Positions 12,185-40,343 of a DNA stretch of 64,000 nt are shown in pieces. Within the stretch, counting starts at the first letter, position 1; each line of letters starts with the position of its first letter. This DNA is from Nemertoderma westbladi (Eukaryota; Animalia; Xenacoelomorpha). The position numbers were made by a program, and so were the translations under genes. The stretch is taken from positions 53,027 to 117,026 of the forward strand of contig JAUCBJ010007194.1 in NCBI GenBank assembly GCA_032718475.1, in the 5' to 3' direction. Below the pieces are notes generated by a model that was given only the letters and a program-made list of their open reading frames with translations, was not told the origin of the DNA and made no database searches.

Positions 12185-13281
12185 TGTTGCCGTTATTCCC
12201 AACACCAGGGGGGAAAACGCCGATGCTGGAGGCGGAATTTTCAGACCACTTTATCCCGGCCAGTCACCGGATATTGGGAGTGGAGAAGGATGTTATCTGA
12301 GATGAAAGATTGCAGGTAGAGAAAAAGTTTCATTGGTAGGATATAATCTTTAATGTAACTTGAACCCTGATTGAATCTTGTTCAATACCATAATGAACCT
12401 TTATTGAGAATAATTTGGGCTTCCCCACACCAATATACCAAATATTCACAATAATACACAAATATAAATTCCTAAAGTAAATGATTTAATTACCCACTGT
12501 TCGCTTTCAGATTTTGACCTAACTAATGTTCCCCATTTTCCCTCGGTGCTAGTCCGGTACAGTAGTGTCAGTGTCGGTCGATCCTTCGCATGTCCATCCC
12601 ACCCTTCCCGAACCCTGACGGGATCGGTCATCAGGAAAGCAGTACGGCTTAGCTAGGGGTCTGTCAGTTCATGGCAGGGTCCCAACCACCAAAGCTTTTC
12701 GAATCCTTTTCAGGCTCGTAATCGCATCGGTAGCCGAGAAGCTGCTCTGAATAGTCAGTAGGTCAGTAGAATCCGGTTTTCTGTCTTTCGACCCTGTCGC
12801 ATGGCCGTCCCACCCTTCCTGAACCCTAGCGGGTTCGGTCATCAGGTAAGCGGTACGGCTTAGCTAGGGGTCTGTCGGCCCGTTGTGAGTCCCAACTGTC
12901 GGAGATTTCCGAGTCCCTTTCAGGCTCGTACTAACGCCAGTCGTGGAACCCACGCCAGGAAGTCTACTACTAGGATCGGCATGCTGCATTGCAGCTGCAT
13001 TTTTAAGAATGCTGTGCCGGCTTATCGACAAAATTGCACCGCCACAACTCCCTGTCACCCATGACATTTGCTCATGACACCCATGACAGGAAGTCAGTCC
13101 TCGTCGAACCCTTCCTTTCTGTCCGGTCAGTCGATCCTTCGCAAGTCCCCAATGCGAAGACTCCGGCCGAGTCCCTTTCAGGCTCAGTCGTAGCCAACGC
13201 ACCAGGAACCGCTTAGGATCTGTCAGTTCCCGTCGCAAATCCCCGGCGCAACCAGCTAAGCTTTCCGAATCCTTTTCAGGC
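12185..13281 (-). repeat. 3' LTR of D (U3 end and PPT deleted; contains ~200-bp tandem units)
   Basis: 12185-12388 and 12925-13281 match 36476-36909. Homology stops at 13281. Confidence 0.85.
12965..13086 (-). mobile_element. Short RTE 3'-end insertion in the D LTR
   Basis: Reverse complement of ~48010-48120. Flanked by duplicated CAGGAAGTC, which is single-copy in the other LTR at ~36714. Confidence 0.85.
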
Positions 13282-13354
13282 GTTTGGGAGGCGTTTGGGA
13301 ACGAGAAGTATCCGCTCCGCACGCCATTTCATGTGCGACGTTTCGGGCACTCAG

Positions 13355-15212
13355 TCACGCTCTAGTCTTTACGTGTGCGTTGGCGTACGTCTCGAACATA
13401 ACCATGTTCCCGGTAGCCGTAACGTCCTTGGTGGGACATTTGATGTTGCACCGAGGGCTCGCAGTATGCCCACGGAAACCGCACGTTGTACAGACGTTAT
13501 AGAGTGTCAGGCAAACCGCTACGTCATGGCCCGGGGTAGCGCAATATGGACAATAGAGTATCCCAAGGATTTAGAAGCAGCGTTCGGTAACTCGTTGTTT
13601 CTTAAGAAGTCTCTGAAGTCTCTTAAGGAGTCTCTGAAGAAGATTGGGATCTGTACGCCGGCATAGTATTCCAGACGTCTATCCTTTTTCGGGATAATTG
13701 TCGTAACCGGGAGCCCGCGGAAGGCTGTGCTGTTGCGGAGTTGGGCCTCGTTTCGGTATCCTTCTTTATGGTCCGCTGGATGCATCTCGGGTGCCCGTTT
13801 CTGACGGTATATCCACTCCATCTGTTCCGCGTACCATCGGGTGAGTCTCATTGGGTCTTGAGGAATGGTGGGAGCCGTCGCAACAGCCGGTCGGTCAAGG
13901 GGTGCTGGAATATTCGCTGAGGGAATCCTGAGGAGGTCTCCGGGTGTTGGTGGTATACTAGGACCCTTCGCGACTTGAATAGCTGATAGGGTCCGCTGTG
14001 TACTGGTACTTGGGGTTTCCGAAGACCAACCCTCTCCTCCAGGAAACGGGTATGGAGACAACCTCTTGCATGCATCGCCGAAGTCACTAAGCGCAAAGGC
14101 GGGAACTAGCTCTCTCGCCGGACTACCGGAGCCAAGCGGAGTAGCCGGCTTCCGTCGCAGGCTCAGCCACGGCAATACGCTTAGCAGCCGATCCGTAGGC
14201 AACTTCCGGTTCGAGTTGACGTTTTGGGGTGGATAGCAGAATGCCTTCTTGTTTCCATAACTCCTCCCCTTCCGACGATACCATAGGTTCCTCTGCGCCA
14301 AGGAGATGGGTAATTGTGGGGATATCGAATGGTCCGTGCAGATCCCAGGATTCGATAACGGCGAGCGTCTTGGCGTCTCCCGGTGGGATATTCTTCACCG
14401 CCTTGAATGCGTGGTCGATCACCTCGTTCCATTCGTAGTCTATGAAGGACCTTGGGACCGCGCTAATAAGTTTATCGAGGGTTTTACAGATAAAGTTGGC
14501 AACCGTAGTCGTTAGCATTAGCGTAGTCGTTCCGGATATACGCTTTTATATCCGACCCAATCTTGATAATATCGAAGTCGAACAAGACCTGTTGGATCAC
14601 CAATGGTAGTAGCCAGACCGCCCCAGCTGTCCGTAGTTCCTGTTGGGGTGTCGGGAAGATTCGACATATCAATACCAATCCGTCTAGGGTTCCGAGGACA
14701 ACGATTAGCGACCGACCATACTCCTTCATCCCGTATTTCTCTTTATAGTCGTCTCGGTTTTGGATGACTGTCATACGTTCCTCTCGCAGCGTCGCCGTAC
14801 ATTCCGCCAGGTTTCCCCACTGTGCGAGATAGGTACTCTTGTCGTCGATGAAACTATGACATTGCACCATTGTAACCGCCTTCGGAGTCGGCGTCGCATT
14901 GCCCTCGTTGTCGTATATTAGGCACCGGGATTTGTAAACGCTTCGCCGGAACGTATCCCAGAACGACAACTCTTCTCCTCTGATTGCCTCAGCGTTCCGA
15001 GTCCCTTTCAGGCTCGTACTTGCCTCGAACAACCGGAGCGCCTGCACGTTACGGGTATCCGGGGCCTCCCTCCCGGAGAAACGAATGACTCGCACATTCT
15101 CCTTCAACAGGGCATTCCATTTCGCATCAAAACTAGGAGATCCAGGTTGTGGATAGTCTAATGAATCAATTGTATTACTTAATTTGCCAAGAATCTGGCG
15201 ATTCGGGTCCAT
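13355..15212 (-). pseudogene. Extra 3' ORF of D: DEDDy-like 3'-5' exonuclease domain plus tandem CCHC zinc knuckles (frameshifted)
   Basis: Shows LIYDNEG (ExoI DxE), LIVVLGTLDGLVLICRI, LPLVIQQVLFDFDIIKIGSDI and YIRND (YxxxD). CPYCATPGHDVAVC and CTTCGFRGHTASPRC lie at 13552-13448, in a frame absent from the ORF track. The family call is by motif recognition only. Confidence 0.65.
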
Positions 15213-15728
15213 ATTGTAAATTATGTCCGTTACAAATTAAATCAGTTAATTATAAATCCAGAAAGTCTGATTCTATAGCGACTGCAGAATAGTTATTTTT
15301 AATGTAGTTAATATTATTGCTATATAGGCATCTATCATCTTATTGCAACTACATTCAGTATTTACAGTTACTATAGCTATACATTATTATCCAACCAGAT
15401 TTTTGACTTTTTATGTCCGCTTCTTTTTCAAATTCTTTTTCCATTCTACATTTTATACTTTTTTTTGTCTTTTTTATTTCTATAGTTTATACATTTCATA
15501 TTTCATTTCATTTCTTTCATATTTCATCATGTATTCCACATTATATCATTTATTCCATCATTACATCATTTATTACACATTTCATTGGGGTTATAGCCCA
15601 CCGGCTATCATCATTGGGTTATAAGCGCAAAGCATCAGGAATGCGCATCATCACATTTTCATCATCATCATAATACGCGTCATCATTCAGTTTATAGTGA
15701 GTTATCTGTTCCTTTTCATCATTACTTA

Positions 15729-16917
15729 TGTTCGCGCTTTCAGACCTTTGGCAGTTTAACCCGCCAAATTAGGATGTCTTCTAGATAATAAATCGCTTTA
15801 GCCTCTAACAAGTATTTGATTCACTACACTAGTTGAAACCAATCTGTGCGCGATCATTCACCCGTTGGATATACCCGGGAGATTGATTTCGACAGCTTAA
15901 TCGTATTGCTATGTAAGCCTAATGTATTATTCGACTGACAGTATTATATAATCTCTGACAATATTATTCACCTTCGGGAAATATTAACAGTTCCTTTAGG
16001 ACGTGGCGCTCTATCTATATAAACAGAGTTATGACTTAAACTACTCACAACGGTATGGCTTAGTTACAATTCACATATTTGGCGCATTCTTTAGGAAATG
16101 CTTCGTTATCAGTCTCACTCATACACAATGCTGCACAATACTGCACACTAATCTGCCGATCTTCACTGATTTTAGTCACATATAAAAGGAACACAGACCG
16201 ACTCATGTAGGGTCTATCAAATAACATTAAATTCACTTCAAACCACTTTAACATAAGTCACAATTGTTATATGTAACCTTTCTCTCTTACCTTCGGTATA
16301 TCAAGAATATTGGGTTTCGGGGTTATTTCTCGTTATTCCAAATATAATAATTCATCAACAAATATAATGAATAACCGACAGCAAAGCAGTAATGTTAAGT
16401 TAAGTTGCACAGTATGGGCCAGTTAACCAGTGTTAACCAGTGCAGATAACATTGAGTTACCCAGATAACGGATATATGTCCTTATAATTAAGCCTACTAG
16501 TGTAAGGCTAAAGCAGAAAAGCACAAAATACTCCAAAGCCGTTCTTCCTTGGCTCAGGACTGAATGATAACACTGCCCATAATGCATTACGTGATTTCTC
16601 GGAAATTTCTGTACAAGAGCCATAAAAATGCTCTGATTGGCTGACTGAACTAAGAGAGAACAAAGAAACAAAGAAATGTTCTACGTGGCAATATCAGCTG
16701 TTAGCCGTCGTCATGGTAGCGACACTGTTTTCAAGAGTATCCAGCTATTGCGTCACGAAATACGGATTATGTCCTTTAAAGTACACATACAGAAGCAATG
16801 GCTTTTATGTCCTCTAAAACACCAGTACAGTAAAGACACGGCCTTTTTATGCCTGGTAAACCAACTACAGAGTACTTTAAGGGAAAATAACCGGCTAATT
16901 ACGCAAAAGCTTTTACA
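15729..16917 (-). repeat. 3' LTR of A
   Basis: Near-identical to 26717-27906. Preceded on the minus strand by the PPT TGGGAGCGG. Confidence 0.96.
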
Positions 16918-16995
16918 CCGCTCCCAGAAAATGGGATTTAAGTCTATAAAATATAACAAATCACAGTTTCTAAAATATAAAGATACTCTAAACAG

Positions 16996-18324
16996 TTAGT
17001 CTTTCTTACGCAGACGGCGTTTACGCAGTTTTTTGAGGCTAGCAAGAGTCTTTTTCTCTTTGGGGGGAGCCACTTTACTAGGAGGGCCATAACTCCTGGG
17101 TAAAGGGTGCAATACAATTGCATTAGAAGGTTTGGGTTTACGGTCGGAGCCTCGTCCATTTCGATATGCTTCTCCTCGAGCTGATTTTCCTCCGCTTGTC
17201 ATGGGATACGTTCGTCCAAAACTCTCGCAGAGAATAGGGTTTTCTAAGCTTGATATCTTCTTAGAGATTCGAGATTTCCCAATCGAACTGAGATAAGGCC
17301 AATTCGTTTATCGATTGGACTTACTGTTATAACTTACGTTTATCTGAACAAACGCAGGTTTCTTTTTTGATCTTTATAGAATAGCGTTTAACTCGTTTCG
17401 TACAACGCTCTCCTTCACCTTGATGAAGGGTTGTATCGCGTTAAACGGGGACGACCATACGGTTGGATAGTGATATTAGGTGTCCGCGTCACAATCCGGC
17501 TAGGTAAGATGGGCGGCTAGCTAGAAATCACTGTCGGAGTGTTACCGATTAATTGTTAGGGTAGCACTAGATCTTTGAACAGTGAATACAGTCCGCGAGG
17601 ATCCGCGACACCACCAGGATCGCAGGTCTGAGGTCCAACTAAGGAATGAGGAGGTTTGACCGAGTATTCCGGGACTCTGATCGTAGGTTTACTCCAGGAT
17701 CGTTCGAGCCGAGTGAGCATAGGTGATACGTCAAACAAGTTTCGCTCGAAACTCCAGTAAATATAACGAGCACAACTGTGTTTAACACAACGTTTCCGTG
17801 GATGTTTATGTCTTTCCGTTTATTGGCTGGGTCTAGGGCATTTATCGTAATAATACCAAAGACGCACGTCTGGTAGGGGAAACGCGGATGATATTTATTT
17901 GTTGTTACAATGCTTCTATCAAGAATTCCAAATATATGTTGGAGTTACCGCGTTTATTTGTTTCTTTAATGTCTTTTCTTTCGAGTCGATTTCGAATAGG
18001 ATTTTCGCATTAGAATTTTGGTTTATCGTTTCGACTCCTCTGGGTAGGATATGTTCGACATAGTCCGTATCGTGTAAATCGATAGAATGGCCAATGGTTA
18101 AGAAGTCCATATACATACCATTACAATGCGTGTAGCGAGCGGTGAATTTTCCATAGTCCAATTCACGCGTAAGTTACTTCCAGGAAATCGTAGGTTCGAT
18201 ATAACGACCATCATCCTTCGTAGTAGTTGGACTAGTATCACCGCGTATCAAGCTATCAACAAACGCTTGAAAGTAGAGTATATCGCTCCCTGATACCAAG
18301 ACCATCTTCTATCAACTCCGTCAT
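16996..18324 (-). pseudogene. Decayed extra 3' ORF of family 1 in copy A
   Basis: Same MTELIED...KKLRKRRLRKKD pieces as in copies 0, B and C. Confidence 0.55.
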
Positions 18325-19986
18325 ATCTGCTATATATGAGTTTATTAATATTATAATGAGTTTATATTTAGGCTAGCGAGCGTCGCTGCCTACCCCAATC
18401 AGCCCCCGGACAGTGCGAGATCCTCAGCGCCGATGTGTCGTCGCCGCTGTACTTTCGCCAACGACGTAGCCGCACAACGACAACGACAACCGGCACAAGT
18501 CACTCGACTGTCCGTCCCAAAGGCTTAGATACACCTCAGGTTCTTACTGGAGAGTTAGGGTTACTTTCACAATTGCGACTCGCTACTGTAAACACACCTT
18601 AGTAGTAACATTCGCCTATAAACTCACAAATACCACACACACAACTTGTCACAAATTACACACACTCGGGCCATTTGTCCGTTAGTCAATGCCTTCCAGA
18701 ATGTCACTGTATTATTATGTATCCTTGGATACTAGCAGTGCGCTATTTATTCCCTATGCTATTCAATGGGACAAGCTTTCTATTGTTCTTTTAACTCAAT
18801 TCTAATTCTAGCGTGGTTGTTGCTATGGTGACATTATGCAAAGCTAGCGGTAGAATTAGGGTAATTCCAATGCATACAGATCTGGGATGTTATTTAATAG
18901 TAATTCTTTAATGGTCAATGTCCTGTTTTATACATGACTTTATGAATTTTATCGGCTATTGACTATGTTTGGGAGCCTTTCGCACACTCATACGCATAAT
19001 AAGATAAATCTCCGCTCCCTTGATCTATTAATTAATGGAATTTTGGGAATGTTATAAATTGCGTAAAAATGGCAATTTATTAAATTCATTAAAAGGCATG
19101 AATTTAAATTTATTCCCTGAAATTTTATTATTTGATAATTAAATTGACATATTTTGATTCTAGAACATGTCTGGGGACACAAGATCCTTAATTCTATGAA
19201 AATTGTCTTTTTAAGAATATCGGTAAATGCTACGATATCTTAATTGACTAGAATTGTTGAAGGATCTGAATTTTACAGATTTTGATTTATTAGATTTGCA
19301 AATATTAAATAATTAATATTTGAGATGGGCACCGATTTATTCCAGAACTTGTCTGGGGACGTTAACCACTGATTCTAGAATTTGTCTTTCAAGTATATCG
19401 GTGGGTGCCGCGATATCTTAATCGACTAGAATTACAGATGGTCAAAGGGTTTAACAGATTTATTTTGCGTTATACGCTACTGTTAAAGGGACATCACGCT
19501 ACTATATGTATTATTTAATATACGGTATGAGAGCAATATCGCACGAAGCAATGTCAGTGTGAAGAGGCAAGTCGTTTCCAAGGTCTACCCAGAGCTTGGT
19601 TTAGCCGAGACACGAGGATCTGAACTTTGCATTCCTAATACTCTGCCTACCAATAATACTTGAATATAGTAGTGGCTTTATTGTACTTTAATAAGTACGG
19701 ATATTTCATCTTTACTGTAGTCACGTATTTATAATATGATACGGACAGTAAGGAAAGAGAAAAAGAATTATTTCTCGCCGTCGCACTAAATATATATTAT
19801 ACGTAATTACGTACGTAATAAACGCGAATATATTGCACTAATCTACTAAATGATCGCTAAAATAACATTCTACTGAATAAAATTAAAGAAAACGATTATA
19901 ATAAAATTATATAGTAATACATACAGAAATATAAAAATAATAAAATAATATAAAATAATAGAGTCACACACCCACTCCATATGTTG

Positions 19987-22900
19987 TTACGTTATGGAGT
20001 CCCTAGATGTTTGAAGGATTAGGGAGGTGGTCGTGGGAAGAGAATCTTGCCTTCCACAGTTTCCGGAGAGTCCTCCATTCCCTTCCGGTAAACACAAACG
20101 ACCGACTGGGTGATTGAGTCGCTGCATCCCGAATACGATTCCAGGTTTCCTCTTCGTCCTGGAATAGTGACGATAGAAACATCGCTCTAAGTACACGACG
20201 GCCTTACAAAGCCGATTCCAGGAGCTATAGTGGTCCGTCGCTCCCTGCAGGAGAGGTGAGAGTCCCTGCGAGACGTCTGATGTTCCAGAGCTCCAATCGC
20301 TCCCTCTGATCTTCATGAAGGATCCACTCGCGGTGGGGAGGTCCAGATCCACGGCGTCGTCCCTGGCAATATGTAATACCGACAGATCTATCCCGGGTTC
20401 AAATAACTCCGCTCCACCCGTCCGGGTTTTAGGTTTAACTTTCTCCGCTCCCTTGGCTGGTCTAATCTCAGTCGGAGTAAGATGGGGAGGCCATTCATCC
20501 TCCTTACTCAGGAAGTCGGGTTCACCTAACCGGTCTGTAGTATCTGTCAGTTCTTGAGGAGTTGCTCCTCTGGAAGCGATGTCAGTTGGATTAAACTTCT
20601 TGGGGCAATATCTCCATTGATCTACATTGGAGCTAATATCGTCATTATCTGAGGAGTATGGTGTTCCCTCAGTTGGGTCGTCTCCCTCACTAGTATCATC
20701 TTCCCATTCACTCACCTGGCGGACGCGATCTTGAAGCAGTCTTTCTCTGAGCGTTCTTCGGGAAGGTCCAGTAAGGTACCAACCTACTCTAGTTCTTACC
20801 GCATAGGTCTGAAGTGGTTGCGGTTGAGCAGGTCGTTTCTCCAATGTCTCCAGCGCCTCATGCGCGTTTTGACTGATTAATATTTGTACTCCAGGATAAT
20901 CGGTGTCGAATCTAGGGATGTTAAGTTGTTGGGCATGATCATCTTCGTCCCAATTATAAGGTTCCACTTGGGTGGTAGCGAAGTTCTTTATTGCCACCAT
21001 TTTGACTGACCTTATACTGTATTCTCCTAGTTTATCCTGTGGAGTGGACAACTCACCTATATAATAGTCGGCAGCTACAGTAGAATTCCAAACCTGCATG
21101 ATCCCTGACATGTTTAGCTTGGTTCGGAACTTGGGTTGTCCAGCAAAGATGACTTCGGCTAGTTCTTTATCGATGAATGTTCCTGTGCTACCGGAGTCCA
21201 GGAGGGCGTTCACTATATAGCTCTTCTGAGGTCCGTGGACCCGTAACTGGACTACAGGAAATTCTCGGATTCCTATATTGGAAGTTGGCGCTTTCCAAGA
21301 TGGTTGTTGATCAGAAGTAGTTAAGGTAAGGTCGCTGTCTGTGTCTTTCTCATGCACGAGTGCTCGATACACTGCGGTGGTGTTTATTAGGTAACAGGAT
21401 TCGTTTTGGTCGGAGAACTCGTCCGTATAGAATCCTTCCATCTCAGATTGATCAGTGTCGTTCACATCACTGAATTGGACATGTAGTTCGGACTCACTTA
21501 CCAGACTCGGGCTGTTTCGTTCGAATTCCGTGTGCAACAAAATATGATGTTTTGCGCCGCACTTTGCACACCTTGCGTCGGAGTAACAGGTTCGCCGTTG
21601 GTGTCCTCGTCTGAGGCAATTATAACACAACCGCTTATCCCACATGACTTCACGTCTATCCTTTAGTGATTTCCTCAGGAATTTATCACACGCATTTAAA
21701 CGGTGGGGCCCGTCGCACAGCACACATTTCGGCTTGATGTTACTTACTTTAACCTGTGCTATGTGGTGCACACTTGTTCTTTCCTCGGGCTTTCTCACCT
21801 GAATTCTTTTAGGAGACGTAGGAGGGGTTTTTTGTACCGGTTCCCTTCTGTCATTGGGTCGAGACTTGGATTTACTTACCTGGTCTTTAGGCGTTTTATT
21901 GACATAATAAGATCTTTCAGTGTCTTTCCCGCTGTCCTCTCCTTGAGAGGTTTGGCTTTCGCCGTCGTCTGTATAACACATTGGTGTTACCCTTCTCTTA
22001 GAAACGGGTTTCTCACTTACCTTGTTTTCCAATGTCTTCTCTCTGGACTGCCTTAGGAGCTGTAATTTCACTTCTCTATCTAAGAATGACATGAGATCAG
22101 TCATGGTAGGGTCTCGTCGTTGTTGTTCCATCATATATAACACTTTCTTATCCCAGCGTGTACCTACTCCACCCTTCGGTAAAGTAGAAGCCACTGCTCT
22201 AATAACCATAGCACTCTGATACTCATGAGACTTACCTAGCCAATCTAATTGTCTGCAGATCTCCTGAATTTCATCGGAAAACTCTATAATCCCGTTGCTA
22301 ATAAACTTTCGGGGCGCTACCAACTTTGCATACAAATACCCAGCTATTTTATTCCTATTACCATACCTGATGTTTAGTGTATCCCAAACTTGTCTTAATC
22401 CGTCTGGATGTCCAATAAACTTTAACGCCATTAACTTGGGAGATCCTTCCAAGCACTCAATGAGGAATCTAAGTTTCTCTCCATTAGATAGTACAGAGTT
22501 CTGTATGTTATCTTTGTAATATTCATTAAAAGGTAACCATTTCATCTCATCTCCATTGAACTTGACGATCTCTCCCACCTTTACCGCTTGCCGGGCTTCG
22601 GTTCTAGCCATTTGACGCGTAAAACTTTCTTGGGCCATCGTGTTATTTAATATCGAGTTATCAGTATATAAATTTCTCGGATTATGATCCGTTCTATATG
22701 GAATATCCTTATCAACAGGTCTATAATTACCCTTAATAGGGTTCACTATAGGAGTTTCTACTTCGCTAGCAGTATAGATGCGTGTAGGCTCCACACCTTG
22801 CGCATGCGATACTTCAGACCTAACAGGTTGACACATTGTTACAGAGGGTGGTGGTATACTCTTTTGTGTATTTACTAATTTATCGCGTTCTAGCGCGATA

Positions 22901-24441: not shown

Positions 24442-25772
24442 GTTTGATTGTACAGTTGAATGCCTACTGCTATATTACAGTTAAAGCAAGTCTAGTAATT
24501 CAGTATCACTGTTAGCCTAGTAATTAATTACCGATACTGCTACTCAATGTAGCGTGATATATATAATATATTAGAATACCGGTATGTTTATAGTATATAT
24601 AAGTATTATTACAGACTAGGTTTGTTACAGAATACCGGTATAATTTTAGCACAAATATATAAATATATAATAGGCCTATCGTGAATACCGGTATACAGCC
24701 TACTTATAGTATATATAAGTATAATTCTGGACTAGAATTAATTGCAGAGTACCGGTATGATTTCAGCCTAAATTTATAGAAATAAAGATAATAGGCCTAT
24801 CGTAAATACCGGTATGTCAATTATTTTAAATAATTGAATTTCTGAATTTTTTAAGGGTTACTTGGTTACTTTACTTACTTTATTACCGTTATTTGAGCGG
24901 TAGTCCAACTGATATTGAGACCTAATGGTTGTATGGTAGGCCTACTATTTATAAATTGTTAGATTTGATTTATAATATATATATACCCGTTTTAATAGGT
25001 TTTGTCAATGTTTGAAATAAATGTTATTATTTCTGGGGAGTAATCACTACACAAAGCGGTGCGCTTTCAGTGAAGTGTTACTTATAGGACACTAAAACAA
25101 ATAATGCTAATTTACCTAAGTTACTTAATACTACAAATTACGTACAATTCGGGTGAGATTACAATCTCTAAATAAACACAAAAATTTACAAAAACACAAA
25201 ATACGAATTTTCAGGGTAATTTTACAAGAAGTCTACAAACCAGCCTAACAAAGGGTTAGTATCTGGTTATTACAACGGACAGGGTACTGCGGTAGGTATT
25301 TGAAAATAATACGTAGTAGTGAATACACTGCGTTGTCCAGATAGGAAAATACCACCGCCTGACGACCTATAGCCGTATCGTATATACTTAGGTATATACG
25401 GTACTACGTTATGTATCATGGAGTGTTCCTACCTAGAAGTTAATAGAGCTAATCGAACGTGCCTATCAACCACTTTACAACACAAATATAATGTCTACCC
25501 TAATTACTTTCGGAAAGCACTGTACACTAAACCCTAAATTAGGTACGAGTACTTGTACAACATATAATCAGTAGTTAAATATACTTGAACAGCTAAAAGA
25601 ACCACGGCATCTGCTGGAGTGACCGGTGCACAAAATCACCAGTCTTTACCTACGCCAAGCAGCCCGTGTAGTACCGGGGTTAATTTAACTATAGCGGTAT
25701 GTATAACAAACACAATTATTGTAGGAACAAACTTGGGGAATGAATGTTGCGAATAATCGCATAAACTCTGAA

Positions 25773-26345
25773 TAATAAATATTACGCTACCCGTACAAAC
25801 CACTCAAACAAAATGCAGACCAAATACTGACAGACTACTATCAAGCCTAAATAAACTATAGGACATGCAGACTCCGAAATGATTAGGTAGTATGCGTTCT
25901 AACCCAGTAGTACGACTTATTCTTTAGATGGGGGTTTACCTTACAGCTTTGGCTGCCCCTACTTCCTAACCGTTCTTTATCGGACAGAGGCTCTACACAC
26001 ACTGCAATCCGTTCAGACCTAATAACAGCCAGACAACTATCCAGCCTACAAATTATCTAAATAAATATTATACGCTACCTGTACAGACTACACAAACAAA
26101 GTACAGACTAAACGATGGCAGACTACTCTCAAGCCTAAATAAACTACAGGACATGCAGACTCCGAAATGATTAGGTAGTATGCGTTCTAACCCAGTAGTA
26201 CGACTTATTCTTTAGTTGGGGGTTTACCTTACAGCATTGGCTGCCCCTACTTCCTAACCGTTCTTTATCGGACAGGTGATCTACACACACTGCAATCCGT
26301 TCAGACTTAACAACAATCAGACAACAGCTCAGCCTACAAATTGTC
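25773..26345. repeat. ~288-bp tandem duplication in the 5' leader of A
   Basis: GGACATGCAGACTCCGAAATGATTAGG occurs at 25861 and 26149 with continuing identity. Confidence 0.9.
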
Positions 26346-26704
26346 TGTACAATCTGATCAGGCTTACACGCCTTCTGTTCAATACTGGCCTACAAACAAA
26401 TAAAACTTGACAGAAATAAGTAAAAATCTCAATAAAAAACCAGGGCGGGCCCTCCCTGATTAATTATTAAGGCCTACCGGTATATAACTATCAAATTCGA
26501 ATAATACTAATGTACTTATACGGGAAGTACCGGTTAGGACAGTTAGGCCTACGGACCTACAGAAGTACCGGTTCTGGCAGTTGGACCTACGGACCTACGG
26601 CAGTACCGGTTCTGGCAGTTGGGCCTACTGACCTACAGATGTACCGTTCAGGTTTACCGGTTGACCGGTACTTTCAACTTTATTGCTTACTGCAATAAAG
26701 AAGC

Positions 26705-26716
26705 TATATCCGTTAT
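26705..26716 (-). promoter_or_regulatory. Non-tRNA PBS-position sequence of A, complementary to its own LTR
   Basis: Sense ATAACGGATATA abuts the 5' LTR and is the reverse complement of the sense LTR 12-mer at 27453-27464. Confidence 0.7.
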
Positions 26717-27906
26717 TGTTCGCGCTTTCAGACCTTTGGCAGTTTAACCCTCCAAATTAGGATGTCTTCTAGATAATAAATCGCTTTAGCCTCTAACAAG
26801 TATTTGATTCACTACACTAGTTGAAACCAATCTGTGCGCGATCATTCACCCGTTGGATATACCCGGGAGATTGATTTCGACAGCTTAATCGTATTGCTAT
26901 GTAATCCTAATGTATTATTCGACTGACAGTATTATATAATCTCTGACAATATTATTCACCTTCGGGAAATATTAACAGTTCCTTTAGGACATGGCGCTCT
27001 ATCTATATAAACAGAGTTATGACTTAAACTACTCACAACGGTATGGCTTAGTTACAATTCACATATATGGCGCATTCTTTAGGAAATGCTTCGTTATCAG
27101 TCTCACTCATACACAATGCTGCACAATACAGCACACTAATCTGCCGATCTTCACTGATTTTAGTCACATATAAAAGGAACACAGACCGACTCATGTAGGG
27201 TCTATCAAATAACATTAAATTCACTTCAAACCACTTTAACATAAGTTACAATTGTTATATGTAACCTTTCTCTCTTACCTTCGGTATATCAAGAATATTG
27301 GGTTTCGGGGTTATTTCTCGTTATTCCAAATATAATAATTCATCAACAAATATAATGAATAACCGACAGCAAAGCAGTAATGTTAAGTTAAGTTGCACAG
27401 TATGGCCCAGTTAACCAGTGTTAACCAGTGCAGATAACATTGAGTTACCCAGATAACGGATATATGTCCTTATAATTAAGCCTACTAGTGTAAGGCTAAA
27501 GCAGAAAAGCACAAAATACTCCAAAGCCGTTCTTCCTTGGCTCAGGACTGAATGATAACACTGCCCATAATGCATTACGTGATTTCTCGGAAATTTCTGT
27601 ACAAGAGCCATAAAAATGCTCTGATTGGCTGACTGAACTAAGAGAGAACAAAGAAACAAAGAAATGTTCTACGTGGCAATATCAGCTGTTAGCCGTCGTC
27701 ATGGTAGCGACACTGTTTTCAAGAGTATCCAGCTATTGCGTCACGAAATTACGGATTATGTCCTTTAAAGTACACATACAGAAGAAATGGCTTTTATGTC
27801 CTCTAAAACACCAGTACAGTAAGGACACGGCCTTTTTATGCCTGGTAAACCAACTACAGAGTACTTTAAGGGAAAATAACCGGCTAATTACGCAAAAGCT
27901 TTTACA
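26717..27906 (-). repeat. 5' LTR of A
   Basis: TGTAAAAGC...GCGCGAACA on the minus strand, with the TSD adjacent. Confidence 0.96.
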
Positions 27907-27949
27907 ACTTACTACATTCAACCATCTTCTTGGGAAATTTTCGTTGTGG

Positions 27950-28380
27950 AAGGGGTGTTACGCGGCAGTCTGGGATCTAAAGCTGGACTCATTACAACGC
28001 CTACGCCCCAAACTGCACACATAACGGACAATGAATAGAACGCTGGAAGTGAAGTCACGTGGAATGCACCAGGGACCCACCAGAATAACACTCCCAGAAA
28101 CATAAAGCTCAGCCAACAAAGTCATGTGGAATGCATCAGGGACCCACCAGAATAACGTGGCTGAGGAACATAAAGTCTCTATCGACGAAGTCATGTGGAA
28201 TGGTGTTACGCAACATTCTGGGATCTACAGCTGGACTCGTTACACCGCCTACGCCCCAAACTGCACGTAACGATCCCACCAGAATAACGCGATAGAGGGC
28301 GTGTTGCATGGCAGTCCGGGATCTACAGCTGGACTCGTTACACCGCCTACGCCCCGAACTGCACACGCAACGGACAACAC
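27950..28380. repeat. Interleaved direct repeats in the D region between pol and the extra ORF
   Basis: GGGATCTACAGCTGGACTCGTTACACCGCCTACGCCCC occurs 3 times (~27972, 28220, 28318). AAGTCATGTGGAATG..GACCCACCAGAATAAC occurs 2-3 times. Confidence 0.8.
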
Positions 28381-28466
28381 AATACAACATAATGGATACA
28401 ATGAATTCCATTTCGGAACTTTCCCATTTCTGATAATCCAAGGTAGTTGGTCCCGATACCAAAATC

Positions 28467-29215
28467 TACGGTGGCCCATAACTGTCACAGTATATAAAAA
28501 GGAACGGCAGAAATTAAAAAGCCACGGCAGAAATTAAAAAGCCACGGCAGAAATTAAAAAGCCACGGCAGAAATTAAAGAAGCTACGGCAGAAATTAAAA
28601 AGCCACGGCAGAAATTAAAAAGTAACTGCTATTGCTAGATTATATGAGTATGAGTGCCGACTGCAAGCTATTGCTATCGGCCAGTAAAAAAATAGGTAAA
28701 AAAAATAATAAAAAAAAAAGGTAAAAAAAAAGTAGAAAAAATAGGTGAAATGTAAAAAAGGTAAGGTAAAAATAGGTACGAAAAAATATTTGCTATAATG
28801 TGTTGTAATAATCACGGCTTTTTAATTTCTGCCGTGGCTTTTTAATTTCTGCCGTAGCTCCTTTAATTTCTGCCGTGGCTTTTTAATTTCTGCCGTGGCT
28901 TTTTAATTTCTGCCGTGGCTTTTTAATTTCTGCCGTGGCTTTTTAATTTCTGCCGTGGCTTTTTAATTTCTGCCGTGGCTTTTTAATTTCTGCCGTAGCT
29001 TCTTTAATTTCTGCCGTGGCTTTTTAACTTCTGCCGTGGCTTTTTAATTTCTGCCGTGGCTTTTTAATTTCTGCCGTGGCTTTTTAATTTCTGCCGTGGC
29101 TTTTTAATTTCTGCCGTGGCTTTTTAATTTCTGCCGTAGCTTCTTTAATTTCTGCCGTGGCTTTTTAATTTCTGCCGTTCCTTTTTATATCCTGTGACAG
29201 TTATAGGACACCGTA
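28467..29215. mobile_element. Non-autonomous foldback DNA transposon with 20-bp tandem-repeat TIRs
   Basis: TACGGTG..CATAACTGTCACAG / CTGTGACAGTTATAG..CACCGTA termini. Unit AAAAAGCCACGGCAGAAATT ~6x on the left and ~18x inverted on the right. 6-bp TSD AAAATC at 28461-28466 and 29216-29221. Confidence 0.9.
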
Positions 29216-29401
29216 AAAATCAGGGTGAACAAAACATAAACTACCCTGCGTCAGTCGAAACATCTGTAGGGTGACGCTGGACTCCACATAACACGCGAGG
29301 AAACACAAAATACCATGCGTGGTTACAGTTGGTTTAAGGGGGGTCCATATTCATTGTCGGTAAATCACATTTAAAGAGTTTGTCAACAGGATGGGAAGGG
29401 T

Positions 29402-32400
29402 TTAAACGGGTTTATCATTGTCACCAATGTCCGCAGCAGGATCCAGAGTAGGGAACTTATCACCTCTCGTGGAGTTACCACTGTCATTGCCTTTGAGAAG
29501 GCACAGCCTCTGGATAGGGCTTTGGTAGTGGCCCTTTGCCGTTCGTATCGTCACTGTTCTCGCAAATCCATCTTTGCTAGGGGTTATCTCCACGACACGC
29601 GCCACAGGCCAGTGGACGCGGTCTTTAAGGTCTTCAGTGACATGGTACTTCACCAACTGCGACATTCCGGTACGTATTATTCCATTTTCTCCTTGTTCGG
29701 AGGGTTATAAGGTACCCCTGGGCCCAGATTCTCCACCAATGCGCCGCCAGCACTTGGGCCTTCTTCCAGTTTGTGTGTTTCACGATGTCTTTGGGATCCT
29801 GGAACATGGCCTCCGGAAGGATGTTGGTCTTAGGTCTACCGAGGAGATGGTTGGGTGTGAGGGGTTCCAGATCGGTTGGGTCGTCATGGATGGGAACGAT
29901 TGGCTGGTTGTTTAAGGTGGCCGTGATTTCGCAGAATGTGGTGCGCAACGTATCATGAGTGACCCGGGTATCCCCTAACACGATTCGCATGGATCGTTTC
30001 ACTAGATCAATGAGTTTCTCCCATACCCCGCTCGTATGGGGTGCTAGGGGTGTTTGGAAGTGCCATTGGATGTGGTGTTCCTTCCAAACGTGTGATGCGG
30101 TTTCGTCAGTAAACCATCCCTCGATAGCCTCTCTGAGTTCCCTTACTCCTCCCACAAAGTTCGTCCCGTTATCTGAGTACATATGCCGGCAGGAACCGTT
30201 GTTCGCCACGAACAGAAGCAGGGTGTTGATGAATGCGTGCTGCGTGAGGTTCACTATGAGGTCCAGGTAAATCGCCCTCGATCTTAAGCATGTAAAGATG
30301 GCTCCCCAGCATTTAATGTTGGATCGTCACTCAATAACCGTAAATGGTCCGAAGCAATCTACGCCGGTTCGGTTACGTAGAACGGCGGCGAGTCGGACTG
30401 AAGCCGCGTGGTTGGCAGATCGGCCATTCTTTGGGTGAGCGGTGGCGCTAGATATCTCCTGCAAGGGAAACACCATTTCAATACTTTCCGAATCAGTGGC
30501 TGGTTGTGGGTGATCCAGTATCGTTGCCGGATATTGGCCATGATCCAGTTTTGGCCCGCGTGATGATTTTCCTCATGAAATTGTTGGACTAGCAGCTTGG
30601 CTAGTGTAGACGTTCCTGGCAGAAGTGTCGGATACTTAATCTCATACTCGACCGGGGCGTTCGCCATCCTGGTATTAAGGCATATCAATCCGTCCTCTCC
30701 CATCATGGGTCTCAACTGGTAGACCGGGCTGTCAGGTTTCAAAGTCCTGCCCGCATTGAGCTGCTCCCATTCGTCGGGGAAACTTTCTTTCTGGACATAT
30801 CTCACAATACATTTCTCCGCGATAATGAGTTCTTGTATACTCCACCGAACTATCGGTTTGTTATCCTTCCACCGCAGGAAATTACGGAGGGTCATAACGT
30901 GGCTGGTTGCTCGGTAGTCGCAACGTTATAGTGCCTGCCCGAGTCCTTTGCAGGCTCAATCAGACAGCTATAGATCTCCATGGTGGTGCTCCCACGGACC
31001 TTGCGGATCTCCTTATTGTCTTCCGAATATTTCCCGCTATCTAATCCGGGATCAAATTGGGTGCTCCAGGTTCGTTGCGATTGCTTTAGGAATTCCGGAC
31101 CCGTAAGCCAGAGTTTATTCCTACCGAGCTATCGTGGGGTGGTGCCTCGGCTCGATAAGTCCGCCGGTTTAACTTTCCCATTTACATGATGTCACTGTTC
31201 TCTGTTGGTGCACTGTTTTATTTCCGTGGCCCGGTTCGCCACGAACGTTGTGTGTCGCCGTGATGGTGAATGGAGGTAGTAGAGTACAATGCTGGAATCG
31301 ACCCAGAAGTGTTGAGATTCAATGGGGATTCTAAGGTTTCGCATAATCATGCGGTTTTGTCTTACGACCCAGACTGCAGCTTGCAACTCGAGCCTTGGGA
31401 TAGTTGCCACAAATTCCCCGGATACCATCTTCGCTTTGGAGAATAAGAAACTAATATTGCCGTTTCCATCTTGGCTTAATCTCCGGATATATGTAACAAT
31501 ACCGTTTCCAGTATTCGAGGTATCCGAGAAGGTATGTAGCTGGAATATGTCGGTGGGCAGCTTGTTGAGGAAGAACGGTCGAGGAATTCGCATAAGGTGG
31601 AGCTGTTCAAGTTGCTCCATCCACTTCTTCCATTTAGCGCTAAGGTGTGGGGGGAGTTCTTCATCCCATCCCAGTCCTTCGATCCACATCTCTTTAATTA
31701 GATTCATTCTGGCCAACGTTACCGGGGATATGAAATTCAAAGGATCGAATATGGCACTCTTTATGGACAAACATCCCCTCTATGTCATTGGTTTGGGTAG
31801 GGGGTTATGTTTGAAGATAAACTGGTCCAGTTTTATGTCCCATTCAATACCAAGTACGCGGTGGTCTACACCCTCGGAATACATTTTATCATTATCCAAC
31901 TTGATCTCTTCCGGTAGCCTTTCCATAAGCTCTTTGTCATGTGATCTAAATTTTACTAGGGCAAAACCTCCCCTCTTTAAGCATTCTACCATTCCAATGG
32001 CGAGCTGGTATGCCTCGTCAACATTTTCGGCGCCAGCGCATCCATCATCCACATAAAAACATCTCCGGATGGTCTCGATAACAGTCAGAGGGAACTCATT
32101 TTCGCACATGGTCGCAGTTTTCTTCAACATGTCGCTACATGTGACTGGCGAATCCTTCGCACCAAAGATCCGGACAATCATATACATTATGTCCACATCC
32201 TCCGAAGTTAGTTGATTTATCTCTTGTGGGGTTAATGCCTTGTCTGTCCATAGAATACGGAGGCAATCAGAATCTCGTGGTAGAGTTTGCACTTGGTGGA
32301 ACATTGCCTTGATGTCACACATGAAGGCTACTTTATTCTCCCGGAATCGGATTAATACGCCGATCAGTGTACTGTATATGTTAGCTCCGGTATATAGCTG

Positions 32401-35400
32401 GCTATTCAACGATTCACCTTGGTACATAGCTGCCGCATCATTCACTACCCGTATCTTTCCGCCCTTCCGGGCCTCTACTACATAGTGGGTCGGAAGATAG
32501 TAAGTCCGTTTTGTCCCCATCAGTTCGTCTGGGGGAACCATCTCCGCTAATCCATCTTCCAGATATCCCTTGATTACATTGTTATATTTTTCTTTGATCT
32601 CGGGTAGCTTGTGCAACCTGCGTAAGATCCCCTTTAGCCTCCTCAGGTCCATACTAGTATTGTTAGCCATCGGTCTGTCCGGATCCTTCCATAACATTGG
32701 TGAGCACCAATGCCCGTCCTTAAACACTGCTTGATCTAGGACGTCCACACAGTATTGGTCCTCCTCCGATGGGTTTTCATCCTTTTCGGCAAATTCTTGG
32801 GTTTCCAGGTTGAAGTATTTCGTCATCTCTTGTTGTGACGTTTCCGTTTCCAGGAATAGATCCTCATCCATATCGGTCGCTGAACAGTAACCCACGGATG
32901 TTGTATTCCCTTCAATCTGACACTTGGGAGGTATGTATAGGTGTTGGTGGTTTCTTCTTTAATCCCGCAGAGTGTCCATCCCATAATGGTGTGCTCTGCG
33001 TAGAAACCATCATCCGGCTTTACGGAACGGGCGATATCTCCAGTTGGTATATGCAATTCTGGGGTATCGAGTACAATAAGTAACGTAATTCTGTTAACGT
33101 TCAATGGTGGGCATCTTAGATCCACGTCCTCTCAATCTAGTTGTATAAGGGGTGCGTATTCGGAGGATTGTCGGAATCGCACTCTGAGATCGGTATGCAC
33201 CAGGGCGTTTTTAATAGTTAGTTTTACCCTTTCATAACCTGCCATAACCCCTTCTACACTGAGTTGCACCTCTCCGGACTCCACTTCCTTATTGTCCGTT
33301 ATAGTTTGTATAGGTCGCTTGCAGGGCTCGTATTCTAGACCCAGCTGTCCCAGAAAGTCCCCGTCGATTATAGTCCCGTCCGACCCATTATCCAGGAACG
33401 CAAGTGTGGTCAAGGATTTCCCGATGCCTTGGATCCTCACTGGTATTACCTTGGCAAAAACCATATACCGTCGGTTGATCAGGTTGACCGTAGCCGATAT
33501 GCTGGTCACGTGTGCTACGTCTGCGGTGGTCTTGAACGGGTTTGTTTCTTTCCGTTGGATCATCCGAGGGCCTTTTGAGACGTGGTTGGTTTCCCCTCTC
33601 CGCTTGGATTCGATACGGAATGGTAATGTAGTGAAGTCGAAGTTTGCGGGAATGTGGAGGAGCGTGTGATGTCGTAGATCATTACAAACCGCACAACATG
33701 ACCTCTGTTCGCAATCCCTCACATAGTGGCCTGTGCCAAGACACTGGAAGCATCCTCGGTGTTTCATGATTGCTTCAAAGCGCTGGACAAGTTCTGCGAA
33801 CTGGAACTTTCTGCAGAATTCTACTTTGTGCTTCTCTCCACAGAAGAGACATAGAAGGGAGGTTGTTGTGCCTTCCCTCTCGGGCGCCCAATTTGCCAGA
33901 TAGCACGCCCATTCTTCTGCTGATGTCGGTTCCTCATAATCCTCGTCGTCCGAATCCTCAGCCATGGTGATGGCCATCGTACTTACCGGAGGAGGGCGGA
34001 ATCTCGATTTTGGAGTGGGTGCCCTGCTCTCTATCCCATCCAACTTGGAGAGACTTTGCTTAGAGAACATGGAGTCGTTCATGGCCTCGGAGATATTATC
34101 TAGGAATGCCGACATTTCAAGAAAACTAGGATACCGATCCGGGTGTCTTCGCCTGAGATCTACACATTTATATGCCCATTTACTTTGTAGCCATCCGGGA
34201 AATTTCCGGGCAATTTGTCTAAGGTTTAATAAATTATTTATTTGTTCTTCTTTGTTTAATGGTTTCAAAGTATAATAAGCATCCTTCATTGAGTCCGAAA
34301 ACTCTTGTATATTCTGTGGGTCTTCTAGGGATCCAGCATTGTGTATCAGTTTCTCAAGTGTCTTGTTAATTATGGTTCCAACGTTGCCATATCTTTTATC
34401 GAGCGTTTTCCACGCATCGTGATTCGCTTCGTGAGATCCTCCTTCGAAACATGTAACAATGCGGCGTGGTTTGTCACCCAGATACTGAGACAAATATACC
34501 AATTTTTGTGCATCGGTGATGTCCGTCGATCCGATTTGAGCAAAGAACCGTTTTTTAAACCCGAGGTAGTCGACGGGGTCGCCCTCGAAGGTACGAATTT
34601 CCATCTTAGGCATAGCCAGACGGTTCTCCAAGGCTCGTATGATACCGACGTCGTCTGAACTGGAATGACTAGGAGGTCCGTAATTACTAACGCTTTCTCC
34701 CATACATGATGGATCGATAAGAGGGGTGGTTTTAATAATGACGCGGTTACGGATTTTAGGAGTAGACGTAAATAGATTAGTGGATAGAGGGGTGGCGTCA
34801 CGTTCCGAGTCGTTTTCAGGCTCATACTTGTTTGTAGAAGCTCACCGTAGGATTGAAAGGGAAATAAGGTTCCTCGTTCTTAAGAGTAACCGGTGGGGGG
34901 TGGAAAACCGGTGTTTGAGCCGAGAGTGTGGACCGTATAACCGACGGAAGCTTGGCTTTCGGAGGTTTTACTGCCAGTGGTGTAAACGACTTCTCTAATT
35001 CTGGAACCGGGATTGGTTCATAGTCCTGTTCTATACACTTCTCCCAGTACTCGTATAGTTGAAGGTCTCGTTCTATGCGTGCGGCTTCATAGTCTGCGAG
35101 TTTAGCAATATCCGCATTCTTCTTGTGAATTCTTCTTCTTCTTGTTGGGCCTCGGCATTCCGTTTACGCATTTTGGCCTCTTGTTTACGTATTTCGGCCT
35201 GTTGTTCAACCTCCTGTTTCCGTATTTCTGCCTGTTGTTCGGCCTCTTGTTTATGTCTTTTGGCCTCTTGTTTCCGTATTTCGGCCTGTTGTTCGGCCTT
35301 GCAGATCGAACAGGATGTACTAGCAGAAGAAAGCAACCATTTACGCATTTCGGCCTCTTGTTTACGTCTTACGACCTGTATTTCAGCCTCTTGTTTATGT

Positions 35401-36065
35401 CTTTCGGCCTGTATTTCGGCCTCTTGTTTATGTCTTTCTTCTGCTAGTACGTCCCGTTCGATCTGCAATTGAACATATTCATCTTCCATCTGGGCTTTAA
35501 GGGCCAGTGCCCTCTGTTCTCGTAACTGATCTCTAAGGGGTTGACCCCCTTGGGAACTACGCGCTGATCCGGATACCTCGCTCCTGGCGCTGGAGTGCTG
35601 GTGCCTCGAGGACCCAGTCCTTTTTCTCAGAACCAATGTCCTGGTACCGGAGGTCCGCACTGATTCCATGTCTGCCTTTTCAGTCCTTTTGTAATATTGT
35701 TCCTCATAACCTCTCACGAGGCTAAGGGTCCTCCGATGTTGTTAACGGAACTCTTCCAAGTGTGTGGAATGTTCCTCCATTCTGGGGTAGTTCTCCAGAG
35801 TGGTTGCGGGAATGAGCTCTTGGTATGCTTGTAACATTTGTTCGTATCGTTGGAGGATATTCCTGATCTTTTGTAACTGAGTTTGTATATCGCTGAGGGG
35901 GGTCTCGACTCCCCTTAGTTGTTTCTCGATGCGGTTATAGGCCCGAGAGACCCCGCCCTTGAGAGCGCCCAATCGACGTGCCATGTTTCTTACATTTGGG
36001 ACCTCATCGGTGTCTGAGTCTGTATGAGGCTCTACTCCTTCGGTATCGTAGGCGTTGTCCCCCAT
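29402..36065 (-). pseudogene. Bel/Pao gag-pol of D, broken by frameshifts and stops
   Basis: Capsid (FEGDPVDY..QKLVYLSQYL), knuckles, PR (FLDNGSDG), RT (CDIKAMFHQV, FYVDDG), RH (LHTFSD..TIPRLEL), IN (HEENHH..CFPC, SDNGTNFVG, WEKLI) and C-terminal HWPVARVVE. Confidence 0.95.
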
Positions 36066-36256
36066 TACTCTAGTGCTGCATTTATCGCCAAGTATGTGAT
36101 GTAATAAAATAGTTCGTCATACGTTTCGTATTCAGCTTGAACTACCCGGAAGGTAATTCTAAATCGTCCCACGTTGGTACCCTGTACCTCAACTTCGATG
36201 TGCCAGATTCCGGGTTCAACTTGGATTATATCAATAGGCGTGATCGATACTTCCAT
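36065..36256 (-). CDS. 63-aa upstream ORF overlapping the D gag start by TAATG
   Basis: The ORF stop overlaps the next ATG (GAG TAA TG). Could also be a frameshifted gag N-terminus. Confidence 0.35.
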   Translation of the reverse strand: MEVSITPIDIIQVEPGIWHIEVEVQGTNVGRFRITFRVVQAEYETYDELFYYITYLAINAALE

Positions 36257-36461
36257 TGCCTGTTAATAACTCTCTGTCAATGATCTGCTGACTACGAGTT
36301 CTAGACAGTTTGGATTGAGTTTGTGAGTGGATTAAAACACGACTTTGTCTCAAATCAAATACCAAAGTTTCCTCGTAGTGGGTGCTGGTTAAGCATGGAG
36401 ATAATTTAAAGAATACTTGTCTGTTGAATTCCCAACTTCCACCAGTTGAAGTTGACCGCGT

Positions 36462-36473
36462 ATTATTCTCAAT
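36462..36473 (-). promoter_or_regulatory. Non-tRNA PBS-position sequence of D, complementary to its own LTR
   Basis: Sense ATTGAGAATAAT lies 2 nt after the 5' LTR and is the reverse complement of the sense LTR 12-mer at 12403-12414. Confidence 0.65.
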
Positions 36474-36475
36474 TT

Positions 36476-37256
36476 TGTTGCTGTTATTCCCGACACCAGG
36501 CGGGAAAACGCCGATGCTGGAGGCGGAATTTTCAGACCACTTTATCCCAGCCAGTCACCGGATATTGGGAGTGGAGAAGGATGTTATCTGAGATGCAAGA
36601 TTGCAGGTAGATAAAAAGTTTCATTGGTTGGATATAATCTTTAATGTAACTTGAACCCTGATTGAATCTTGTTCAATACTTGTTCGTACTAACACCAGTT
36701 GTGGAACCCACGCCAGGAAGTCAGTCCTCGTCGAACCCTTCCTTTCCGTCCGGTCAGTCGATCCTTCGCAAGTCCCCAATGCGAAGACTCCGCCCGAGTA
36801 CCTTTCAGGCTCAGTCGTAGCCAACGCACCGGGAACCGCTTAGGATCTGTCAGTTCCCGTCACAAATCCCCGGCGCAACCAGCTAAGCTTTCCAAATCCT
36901 TTTCAGGCTCGTAATCGCCGCTGGTGGCCAGGAACCGCTAAGGGCAGTCCTTGTCCCCAGGCCTAGCGGGTTACCAACTACCGAAGTAGACGGAGGTTGT
37001 CTAGGCCTAAATAACTATCAGGCAACCCTGATAGCTGAGATTGCTTGATTTTGCCTCCCACCCCTGGCCCTTAAATATCTGATATGATACCCGTGCCCCT
37101 TAAGTCACCCCAATTATCGCCCATAAATCGCCCCCAGTCTATCAAATATGCCCGAATTTTATGTTCCCGCACCCACTACTGATATTGGCATATTCTTAAA
37201 AAATAAATCTACAAAATATTTAACTCGCGTTATGATAAAGTGAAATACCGCGAACA
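36476..37256 (-). repeat. 5' LTR of D (781 bp; internal ~535-bp segment missing relative to the 3' LTR)
   Basis: TGTTCGCGG...GCAACA on the minus strand. TATA-like TATTTAA at ~37071-37077. Confidence 0.88.
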
Positions 37257-40200: not shown

Positions 40201-40343
40201 AAAAAACAATAACGATGTAAATAGTAAATAATACAGAACATAGCAATACGCGATATGTATTTTGTATTATAATATCGCTCATAAATATGCAACCACCACC
40301 ATTGCAATGCTGTTTATAATTAATTGAGTTTATAATAAATTAA

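Follow-up and report, generated by a model that had tools for sequence, protein, structure and literature searches.

Inspection of a 64,000-nucleotide (nt) stretch of the genome of the xenacoelomorph Nemertoderma westbladi (contig JAUCBJ010007194.1 of assembly GCA_032718475.1, positions 53,027 to 117,026, forward strand; the window in what follows) reveals a Bel/Pao long terminal repeat (LTR) retrotransposon, element D, in which the site available to the primer of reverse transcription is an exact 12-nt complement of a segment of the element's own LTR. We propose, with a probability of roughly one half, that D may prime reverse transcription with this LTR-derived stretch of its own RNA and not with a host tRNA, in the manner of the element Tf1. 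A second Bel/Pao family in the window, family 1, carries a 12-nt pair at the corresponding place that is made up of different letters.

Element D lies on the minus strand. Its primer-binding position, ATTGAGAATAAT (36462-36473, minus strand), follows the 5' LTR after a 2-nt spacer, AA (36475-36474), and is the exact complement of ATTATTCTCAAT (12403-12414, minus strand), which lies 217 nt from the LTR end and, in this copy, is confined to the 3' LTR. The two pair over exactly 12 nt, with a mismatch at either side, and the pattern occurs exactly twice in the window, namely at 36462-36473 on the minus strand and as a plus-strand match at 12403-12414, so that the complement is on the sense strand. 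The partner (12414-12403 in sense direction) overlaps by 3 nt an AATAAA (12405-12400; 12400-12405, minus strand), the sole one that a motif scan finds in the 1095-nt 3' LTR, which is likely to be the polyadenylation (poly(A)) signal. The initial annotation of this region had described the perfect complement, its coordinates and its run into the poly(A) hexamer, all of which are borne out here. Both LTRs end in GCAACA, at 36476 in the 5' LTR and at 12185 in the 3' LTR, a terminus established both by comparison of the two LTRs and by contigs of other loci, which diverge at exactly this point (loose ends at 36476 and 12197). In LTR retrotransposons both LTRs receive a copy of all sequence upstream of the primer 3' end, and the primer anneals within a few nt of the LTR end. 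Given that the LTR of D ends 2 nt away, the primer must bind at the position of ATTGAGAATAAT. No TGG is present within 30 nt of the 5' LTR end, and D thus does not display the primer-binding site (PBS) with complementarity to a host tRNA 3' end that characterizes Bel/Pao elements, as had also been claimed earlier; this was assessed by the presence or absence of TGG. A TGG-type stretch beginning 33 nt after the LTR (about 36443) was considered as a PBS and rejected as too far away, because a primer bound there would have brought all the sequence upstream of it into both LTRs, and the LTR ends at 36476.

The length of this complementarity was compared with that in shuffled controls, as the initial annotation had advised. 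Among 5000 dinucleotide shuffles of the D LTR, none gave a complement of at least 12 nt at 0-5 nt after the LTR, and 31 gave one of at least 10 nt. Empirically, about 6 isolated 12-mer complement matches to the D LTR are found among about 120000 window 12-mers, or about 5e-5 per 12-mer, and cross-pairings between leaders and LTRs of different elements reach at most 7 nt. The family-1 element (15729-27906, minus strand), which is nested in D and has 1190-nt LTRs that are 99% alike and a target duplication TAAGT, presents ATAACGGATATA (26716-26705) directly after its 5' LTR, complementary to TATATCCGTTAT in both LTRs (27464-27453 and 16476-16465). This pair too is exactly 12 bp long with mismatches on both sides, a length reached in 2 of 5000 dinucleotide shuffles. 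The element has a gag region (DUF1759), with no reverse transcriptase (RT) or integrase detectable when the Pol of D is used as query, and is a young non-autonomous copy. Three further family-1-like LTRs, whose 5' junctions lie outside the window, keep the partner site (3568-3579, plus strand; 44966-44977 and 59988-59999, minus strand) with 1-2 substitutions (11, 10 and 10 of 12 identical), and the sequence just downstream of it is unalignable. The two families had been described as unrelated and as sharing the geometry of the pair. The former is true of their LTRs and 12-mers, which are unlike, and not of their Gag and Pol proteins, which share 22-38% identity. As for the latter, a 12-nt pair does recur with other letters, yet its geometry is scarcely the same: in family 1 the partner is some 737 nt away from the end of the LTR, as against 217 nt in D, and a motif scan finds neither AATAAA nor ATTAAA in the family-1 LTR.

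The signature is thus seen on two of the three 5' junctions that can be tested in the window. The third belongs to element E (39827-43654, minus strand; 270-nt LTRs, 99.6% alike; target duplication ATGTT), which had rightly been singled out as a contrast: directly after its 270-nt 5' LTR it bears a TGG-type site, TGGCGCCCGA (43375-43384, minus strand), which we take to be a tRNA-Lys site, and the longest LTR complement at this junction is 4 nt. Both D and family 1 have a complement of the kind used to call predicted self-primers, that is, one of at least 10 nt in the 5' LTR that begins 0-5 nt after the LTR (PMC6317226); in the case of D the partner is deleted from the 5' LTR of this copy yet present in the family. 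Against any functional interpretation it could be argued that the match is accidental or a passive relic, for example of a small inverted duplication that was amplified with one master copy, because the copies descend from a recent master and would be conserved even without function, and because the first reading took in many elements. The rarity of such matches in the shuffles of both families and among the window 12-mers, the occurrence of unrelated letters at the same functional position, and the location of the match at the sole place where a primer could bind make this explanation highly improbable. The complementarity of the primer position of D to its own LTR is therefore beyond chance.

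The LTRs of D align as three blocks of about 96% identity (36908-36706 with 13281-13079, 36722-36684 with 12964-12926, and 36679-36476 with 12388-12187). The first ~236 nt of the 5' LTR (36476-37144, minus strand; end firm, start uncertain) are missing from the 5'-truncated 3' LTR (12185-13281, minus strand), and 537 nt of the 3' LTR (12925-12389) are replaced by 4 nt in the 5' LTR. This lost segment (12389-12925, minus strand) holds two TATA-like motifs, the partner 12-mer and the AATAAA, in agreement with the earlier caveat that the 5' LTR of this copy lacks the partner. To place this copy in the context of its family we used contigs from three public DNA runs with the same organism label (X1, X2 and X3), aligned to the region at 80% likeness; the depths given for them are contig depths and not copy numbers. 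The deletion joint (12388 to 12926) is seen in one contig of X2, at depth 36.7, and in none from X1, X3 or a further run, X5. As this is the depth of a single locus, the loss of the 537-nt segment is private to this copy of D; across the joint, the depth in the 5' LTR drops to 388-576.

Contigs unique to this D locus have depths of 35.5 (X1), 36.7 (X2) and 64.8 (X3). The bin spanning the junction with the primer position (36454-36487) has depths of 13008, 13014 and 31821 in the same three runs, the adjacent leader bin (36420-36453) 20634, 17681 and 41909, and the LTR bin that includes most of the partner (12408-12451) 8563, 10068 and 27219. The D family is clearly abundant, given that the depth at both 12-mers is hundreds-fold above that of the locus-unique contigs. 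Among the matches listed for the junction (41 of 137) there is no base difference from 36428 to 36481, and a difference at 36482 is common to nearly all copies and agrees with the 3' LTR. Likewise, among the matches listed for the LTR side (40 of 99) there is no substitution from 12339 to 12515, where the sole listed variant is an extra T in the adjoining T run; it accounts for about one quarter of the depth and does not alter the 12-mer. A group of contig ends in X1 (loose ends at 12197) extends through the LTR end and AA into the 12-mer, of which it covers 11 of 12 letters. In a minor contig variant, at depth 121.7 in X1, the spacer and the 12-mer are replaced by 22 other letters, which match nothing in the window. 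Both 12-mers of D are family-wide and high-copy, with minority variants possible beyond the matches listed. X5, which has the same species label and distant sequences, is not informative in this respect, as no contig among its matches listed runs across either 12-mer. Separately, the high depth reaches only about 150 nt into the leader of D and has fallen to 156-600 by 36250-36317 (X1), which implies that the coding part is far less common than the LTR together with the primer site and a short leader, and suggests that the D family includes many solo LTRs or short non-autonomous derivatives.

In light of these observations, the proposed self-priming of D can be outlined in a sequence of steps, in which the priming itself, the cut and the place where transcription begins are our inference. 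The RNA would begin at the 12-mer or slightly upstream of it, at about 12416-12414, and its 5' end would fold back across about 215 nt of U5 (the unique 5' region of the LTR) onto the site that adjoins U5. The RNase H of the element would then cut after the 12-mer, between U12403 and A12402 and hence within AAUAAA, and synthesis would proceed from the released 3'-OH through AA and U5. Some 12-32 nt would remain from the cut to the poly(A) site and act as R (the repeated region at both RNA ends) in the first strand transfer. As each cycle would copy the primer back into newly made DNA, the match would stay perfect and sharply bounded. A primer from the element's own RNA is economical, because otherwise each of the two families would depend on a different host RNA with a match to its own LTR, and the sharp 12-nt limit in both fits a short primer that is copied back, comparable to the 11-nt primer of Tf1 as described in parts of PMC7175516. 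Co-folding of the LTR (12416-12187) with the leader (36475-36400) places the 12-bp duplex in the minimum-energy structure, where it closes a U5 domain of about 215 nt, and predicts a 7-bp hairpin (CAACTTC/GAAGTTG; 36433-36454, minus strand) 8 nt after the 12-mer, in which no variation occurs among the matches listed. Pyrimidine-purine steps stand before the 12-mers (CA/CAA in D; CA or CG in each of the four family-1-like LTR versions), a context that weakly fits a start site at the 12-mer. A primer assembled by splicing is neither required nor suggested: as judged by eye, the partner in D is contiguous and stands after CCCAA, and that of family 1 after ACA, so that in neither case does an AG come before it.

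According to the initial annotation, the partner is located close to the 3' end of R instead of at the cap. This finds no support in that form, given that R in D is probably only 20-40 nt long, as judged from the single AATAAA of the LTR and the putative TATA-box TATATT (12432-12437, minus strand) that lies 23 nt upstream of the 12-mer; with so short an R the 12-mer could lie at the cap and beside the poly(A) signal simultaneously.

Several points weigh against the proposal that the RNA 5' end of D is the primer. The TATATT stands 23 nt from the D 12-mer, and with the usual spacing of about 30 nt transcription would begin within the 12-mer, at A12405; the TATAAG of family 1 stands only 10 nt upstream of its 12-mer. 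With canonical TATA spacing the RNA would start within the 12-mer of D and after that of family 1, and the full partner would be present only at the junction of U3 (the unique 3' region) and R near the RNA 3' end. The duplex itself is AU-rich, with 10 A-U and 2 G-C pairs, and weak, at a predicted -11.2 kcal/mol for the 12 bp alone. The copies of the D family are young, so that their conservation alone is no proof of selection, the possible minority variants of the 12-mers point the same way, and this particular copy is defective, with a 5' LTR without the partner and with broken genes.

The promoter spacing in particular brings up the possibility that the 3' copy of the 12-mer furnishes the primer or a bridging duplex. 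Transcription would start at A12405, and the full 12-mer would exist only at the U3/R junction near the RNA 3' end, where this region would pair with the U5-adjoining site of the same RNA or of a dimer partner, join the ends, and prime after a cut between AAU and AAA. The TATATT of D is 32 nt upstream of the A of CTCAAT, the TATAAG of family 1 is 33 nt upstream of the same hexamer, and in E a TATATT is 27 nt upstream of TCAATAAA. With these starts the D 12-mer would occupy -9 to +3 and that of family 1 -23 to -12, i.e. mostly or wholly U3, and the arguments from placement and statistics hold equally for such a primer. The TATA spacing in D and family 1 thus lends some support to the idea, raised earlier as one of two alternatives, that the RNA 3' end serves as primer. 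On the other hand, the cut would leave that RNA without its R and poly(A) tail, and a second RNA would be required for the first strand transfer; a long primer lacks a natural stop for plus-strand copying, and the sharp 12-nt bounds would be left unexplained. Moreover, CTCAAT is not kept in the three other family-1-like LTR versions, whereas the 12-mer site is kept. We know of no description of such 3'-end-copy priming for any retroelement. The long-range CYC5/CYC3 pairings between the 5' and 3' ends of Ty1 RNA and the bipartite PBS of Ty3 would resemble it, but both elements are still primed by tRNA-iMet. We consider a pairing of the 3' copy with the U5-adjoining site unlikely, and the specific version in which the U3/R junction of the RNA 3' end is the primer, cut inside AAUAAA, with priming and joining of the ends as one event, distinctly unlikely. 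If true, the latter would be a mode of initiation undescribed for any reverse-transcribing element, spread across a branch of Bel/Pao. The DNA alone does not discriminate between the 5' and the 3' copy as the origin of the primer; as the partner in D overlaps the poly(A) signal just downstream of a TATA-like motif, the position of the transcript ends would discriminate between a Tf1-like and a 3'-end primer.

Irrespective of the source of the primer, D and E share an arrangement in which TATATT is followed 27-32 nt on by TCAATAAA (D 12405; E 43429, with a spacing of 27 nt), and in family 1 TATAAG is followed by CTCAAT 33 nt on (27444). These may reflect a shared core-promoter organization, with the poly(A) hexamer beginning at the transcription start.

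The pairing might also be purely structural or regulatory, closing U5 for packaging or dimerisation or partially hiding the 5' poly(A) signal, with another primer in use. The co-folded structure, in which the duplex sits at the base of the U5 domain, agrees with this, as does the presence of the AAU of AAUAAA inside the duplex. Retroviruses form U5-leader stems around the PBS. Rous sarcoma virus is a case of such a stem, according to parts of PMC5445492. A primer would nevertheless still have to anneal to the same nucleotides, with the LTR end 2 nt away, TGG is absent, and each family would need a different host RNA matching its own LTR. As for the suggestion in the initial annotation that the pairing masks the poly(A) signal of the 5' LTR, AAU is indeed paired and the other 3 of the 6 signal bases are not, so that masking would be partial and the idea is weakly supported. 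A poly(A) signal so near the cap is also usually inactive anyway. A structural or regulatory role without priming therefore appears very doubtful to us, and self-priming of the Tf1 type remains the interpretation that we prefer.

The assignment of D to Bel/Pao (Belpaoviridae) is founded on its LTRs and coding remnants (29402-34841, minus strand), which are interrupted by stops and frameshifts. Pfam scans of the minus strand from 34841 down to 29402 recover PF03564 (2.5e-12), PF05380 (1.6e-37), PF17921 (1.6e-07) and PF18701 (2.1e-11), and the domain order between the LTRs is that of Bel/Pao elements: Gag (DUF1759) with an aspartyl protease (34841-33132), the RT region (32958-31780) and Peptidase_A17 (31779-31192), the integrase zinc domain (Integrase_H2C2; 30925-30359) and DUF5641 (30326-29402), all on the minus strand. 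The same scans indicate domains of Bel/Pao type and no Ty3/gypsy-type Pol, so that D is not a member of the Tf1/sushi clade of Ty3/gypsy. Its closest protein relatives, at 31-42% identity, come from corals, sea anemones, sea urchins and fishes and bear PF05380 and PF18701. D is split by the young family-1 insertion (27906-15729). The sequence between its truncated 3' LTR and the nested element (13288-15725, minus strand) is low-copy at the sampled end (13288-13400, depth 31-124) and contains open reading frames (ORFs) with CCHC-type zinc knuckles discerned by eye and without a Pfam match; it may or may not belong to D.

At its outer borders, ATATT stands after the 3' LTR (12184-12180) and before TGATAG at 37149-37145, and Bel/Pao target duplications measure 4-6 bp; the start of the 5' LTR and the ATATT duplication are unproven, as repeat-level depth runs on to 37250 and nearly all other copies have a different base at 37144. 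The depth upstream of 13287, at the truncated side of the 3' LTR, is 31-124. Inside this LTR lies a 108-nt repeat resembling a miniature inverted-repeat transposable element (12965-13072), flanked on either side by a copy of GACTTCCTG and not part of the D sequence; a second copy of the repeat at 48014-48121 is 96% alike, and the summed contig depth of the repeat in X1-X3 reaches millions, far above all other parts. Downstream of the pol of D are 20-nt satellite arrays in both orientations (28467-29238), and 42-nt tandem repeats (8982-9566) lie within an ORF of 1007 amino acids (8339-11362, minus strand) without a Pfam match. Element E contains an internal tandem duplication of 1100 nt (40607-42819) that gives it two DUF1759 domains; no pol was found in it, and it is located inside a repeat of about 540 nt, the other copy of which is at 47099-47638.

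Scans of viral contigs gave no match to the D junction pattern or to its Peptidase_A17 piece. A metagenome scan recovered 8 loci at 31-38% identity, of which only two, L001 and L003, have internal repeats. These repeats were considered as LTR pairs and rejected, since they are overlaps of permuted contigs, and no LTR end can be placed from them. A 12-nt inverted pair common to four of the 8 loci was likewise rejected, as it lies in gag coding sequence and is at about chance level for the search space. The contigs of L001 and L003, which represent a distant Bel/Pao family, are circularly permuted with one LTR-sized gap between pol and gag, a layout such as collapsed tandem copies or one-LTR circles would give.

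Among known systems, self-priming has been shown for Tf1 and proposed for Tj1, the Tf1/sushi group, Tcn1 and the plant TAR copia lineage (from parts of PMC4600332, PMC7175516 and PMC6317226). The Tf1 primer is the first 11 nt of the mRNA, and its RNase H cut has been shown (parts of PMC7175516 and PMC4600332). As far as the same parts of these sources go, Tf1 and Tf2 of S. pombe and Tj1 of S. japonicus resemble D in having no tRNA-type PBS, a short exact self-complement (11 nt in Tf1, 12 nt in D) and a predicted fold-back that closes U5. They differ from D in that they belong to the Tf1/sushi group of Ty3/gypsy and D to the Bel/Pao superfamily, and in that the mRNA 5' end has been shown to be the primer of Tf1, whereas the start of D is conjectural and the TATA spacing favors one inside the 12-mer; in D, the partner overlaps AATAAA. 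The Tcn1 chromoviruses and the TAR elements of Ty1/copia (Houba, Osr-1) are called by the same measure of complement length and position as used here, and indicate, in the portions of PMC6317226 that deal with them, that signatures of self-priming are not confined to a single superfamily. These are predicted self-primers from plant and fungal lineages, none of them Bel/Pao. Conversely, canonical Bel/Pao elements such as Achilles and element E have the protein domains and LTR architecture of D, but Achilles has a tRNA-Tyr site (part of PMC4580426) and E has TGGCGCCCGA, whereas D and family 1 are without such a site. The ICTV profile, in the part relevant here, treats Belpaoviridae as tRNA-primed and their replication as poorly understood (PMC8742986), and a term search of a metazoan BEL/Pao survey finds PBS, tRNA and self-priming unmentioned (PMC3118150). 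A full-text literature search, whose coverage mostly leaves out subscription journals, returned no paper that joins self-priming with Bel/Pao. What is likely to be new, judging by the sequences described here, is thus the proposed occurrence within Bel/Pao of self-priming of the Tf1 type. Shared by two distinct Bel/Pao families of a single genome, the signature would make Bel/Pao the third superfamily of LTR retrotransposons with tRNA-independent priming, would explain why annotation tools based on the PBS miss such elements, and would bear on the idea, put forward in part of PMC3601003, that self-priming is ancestral to tRNA priming.

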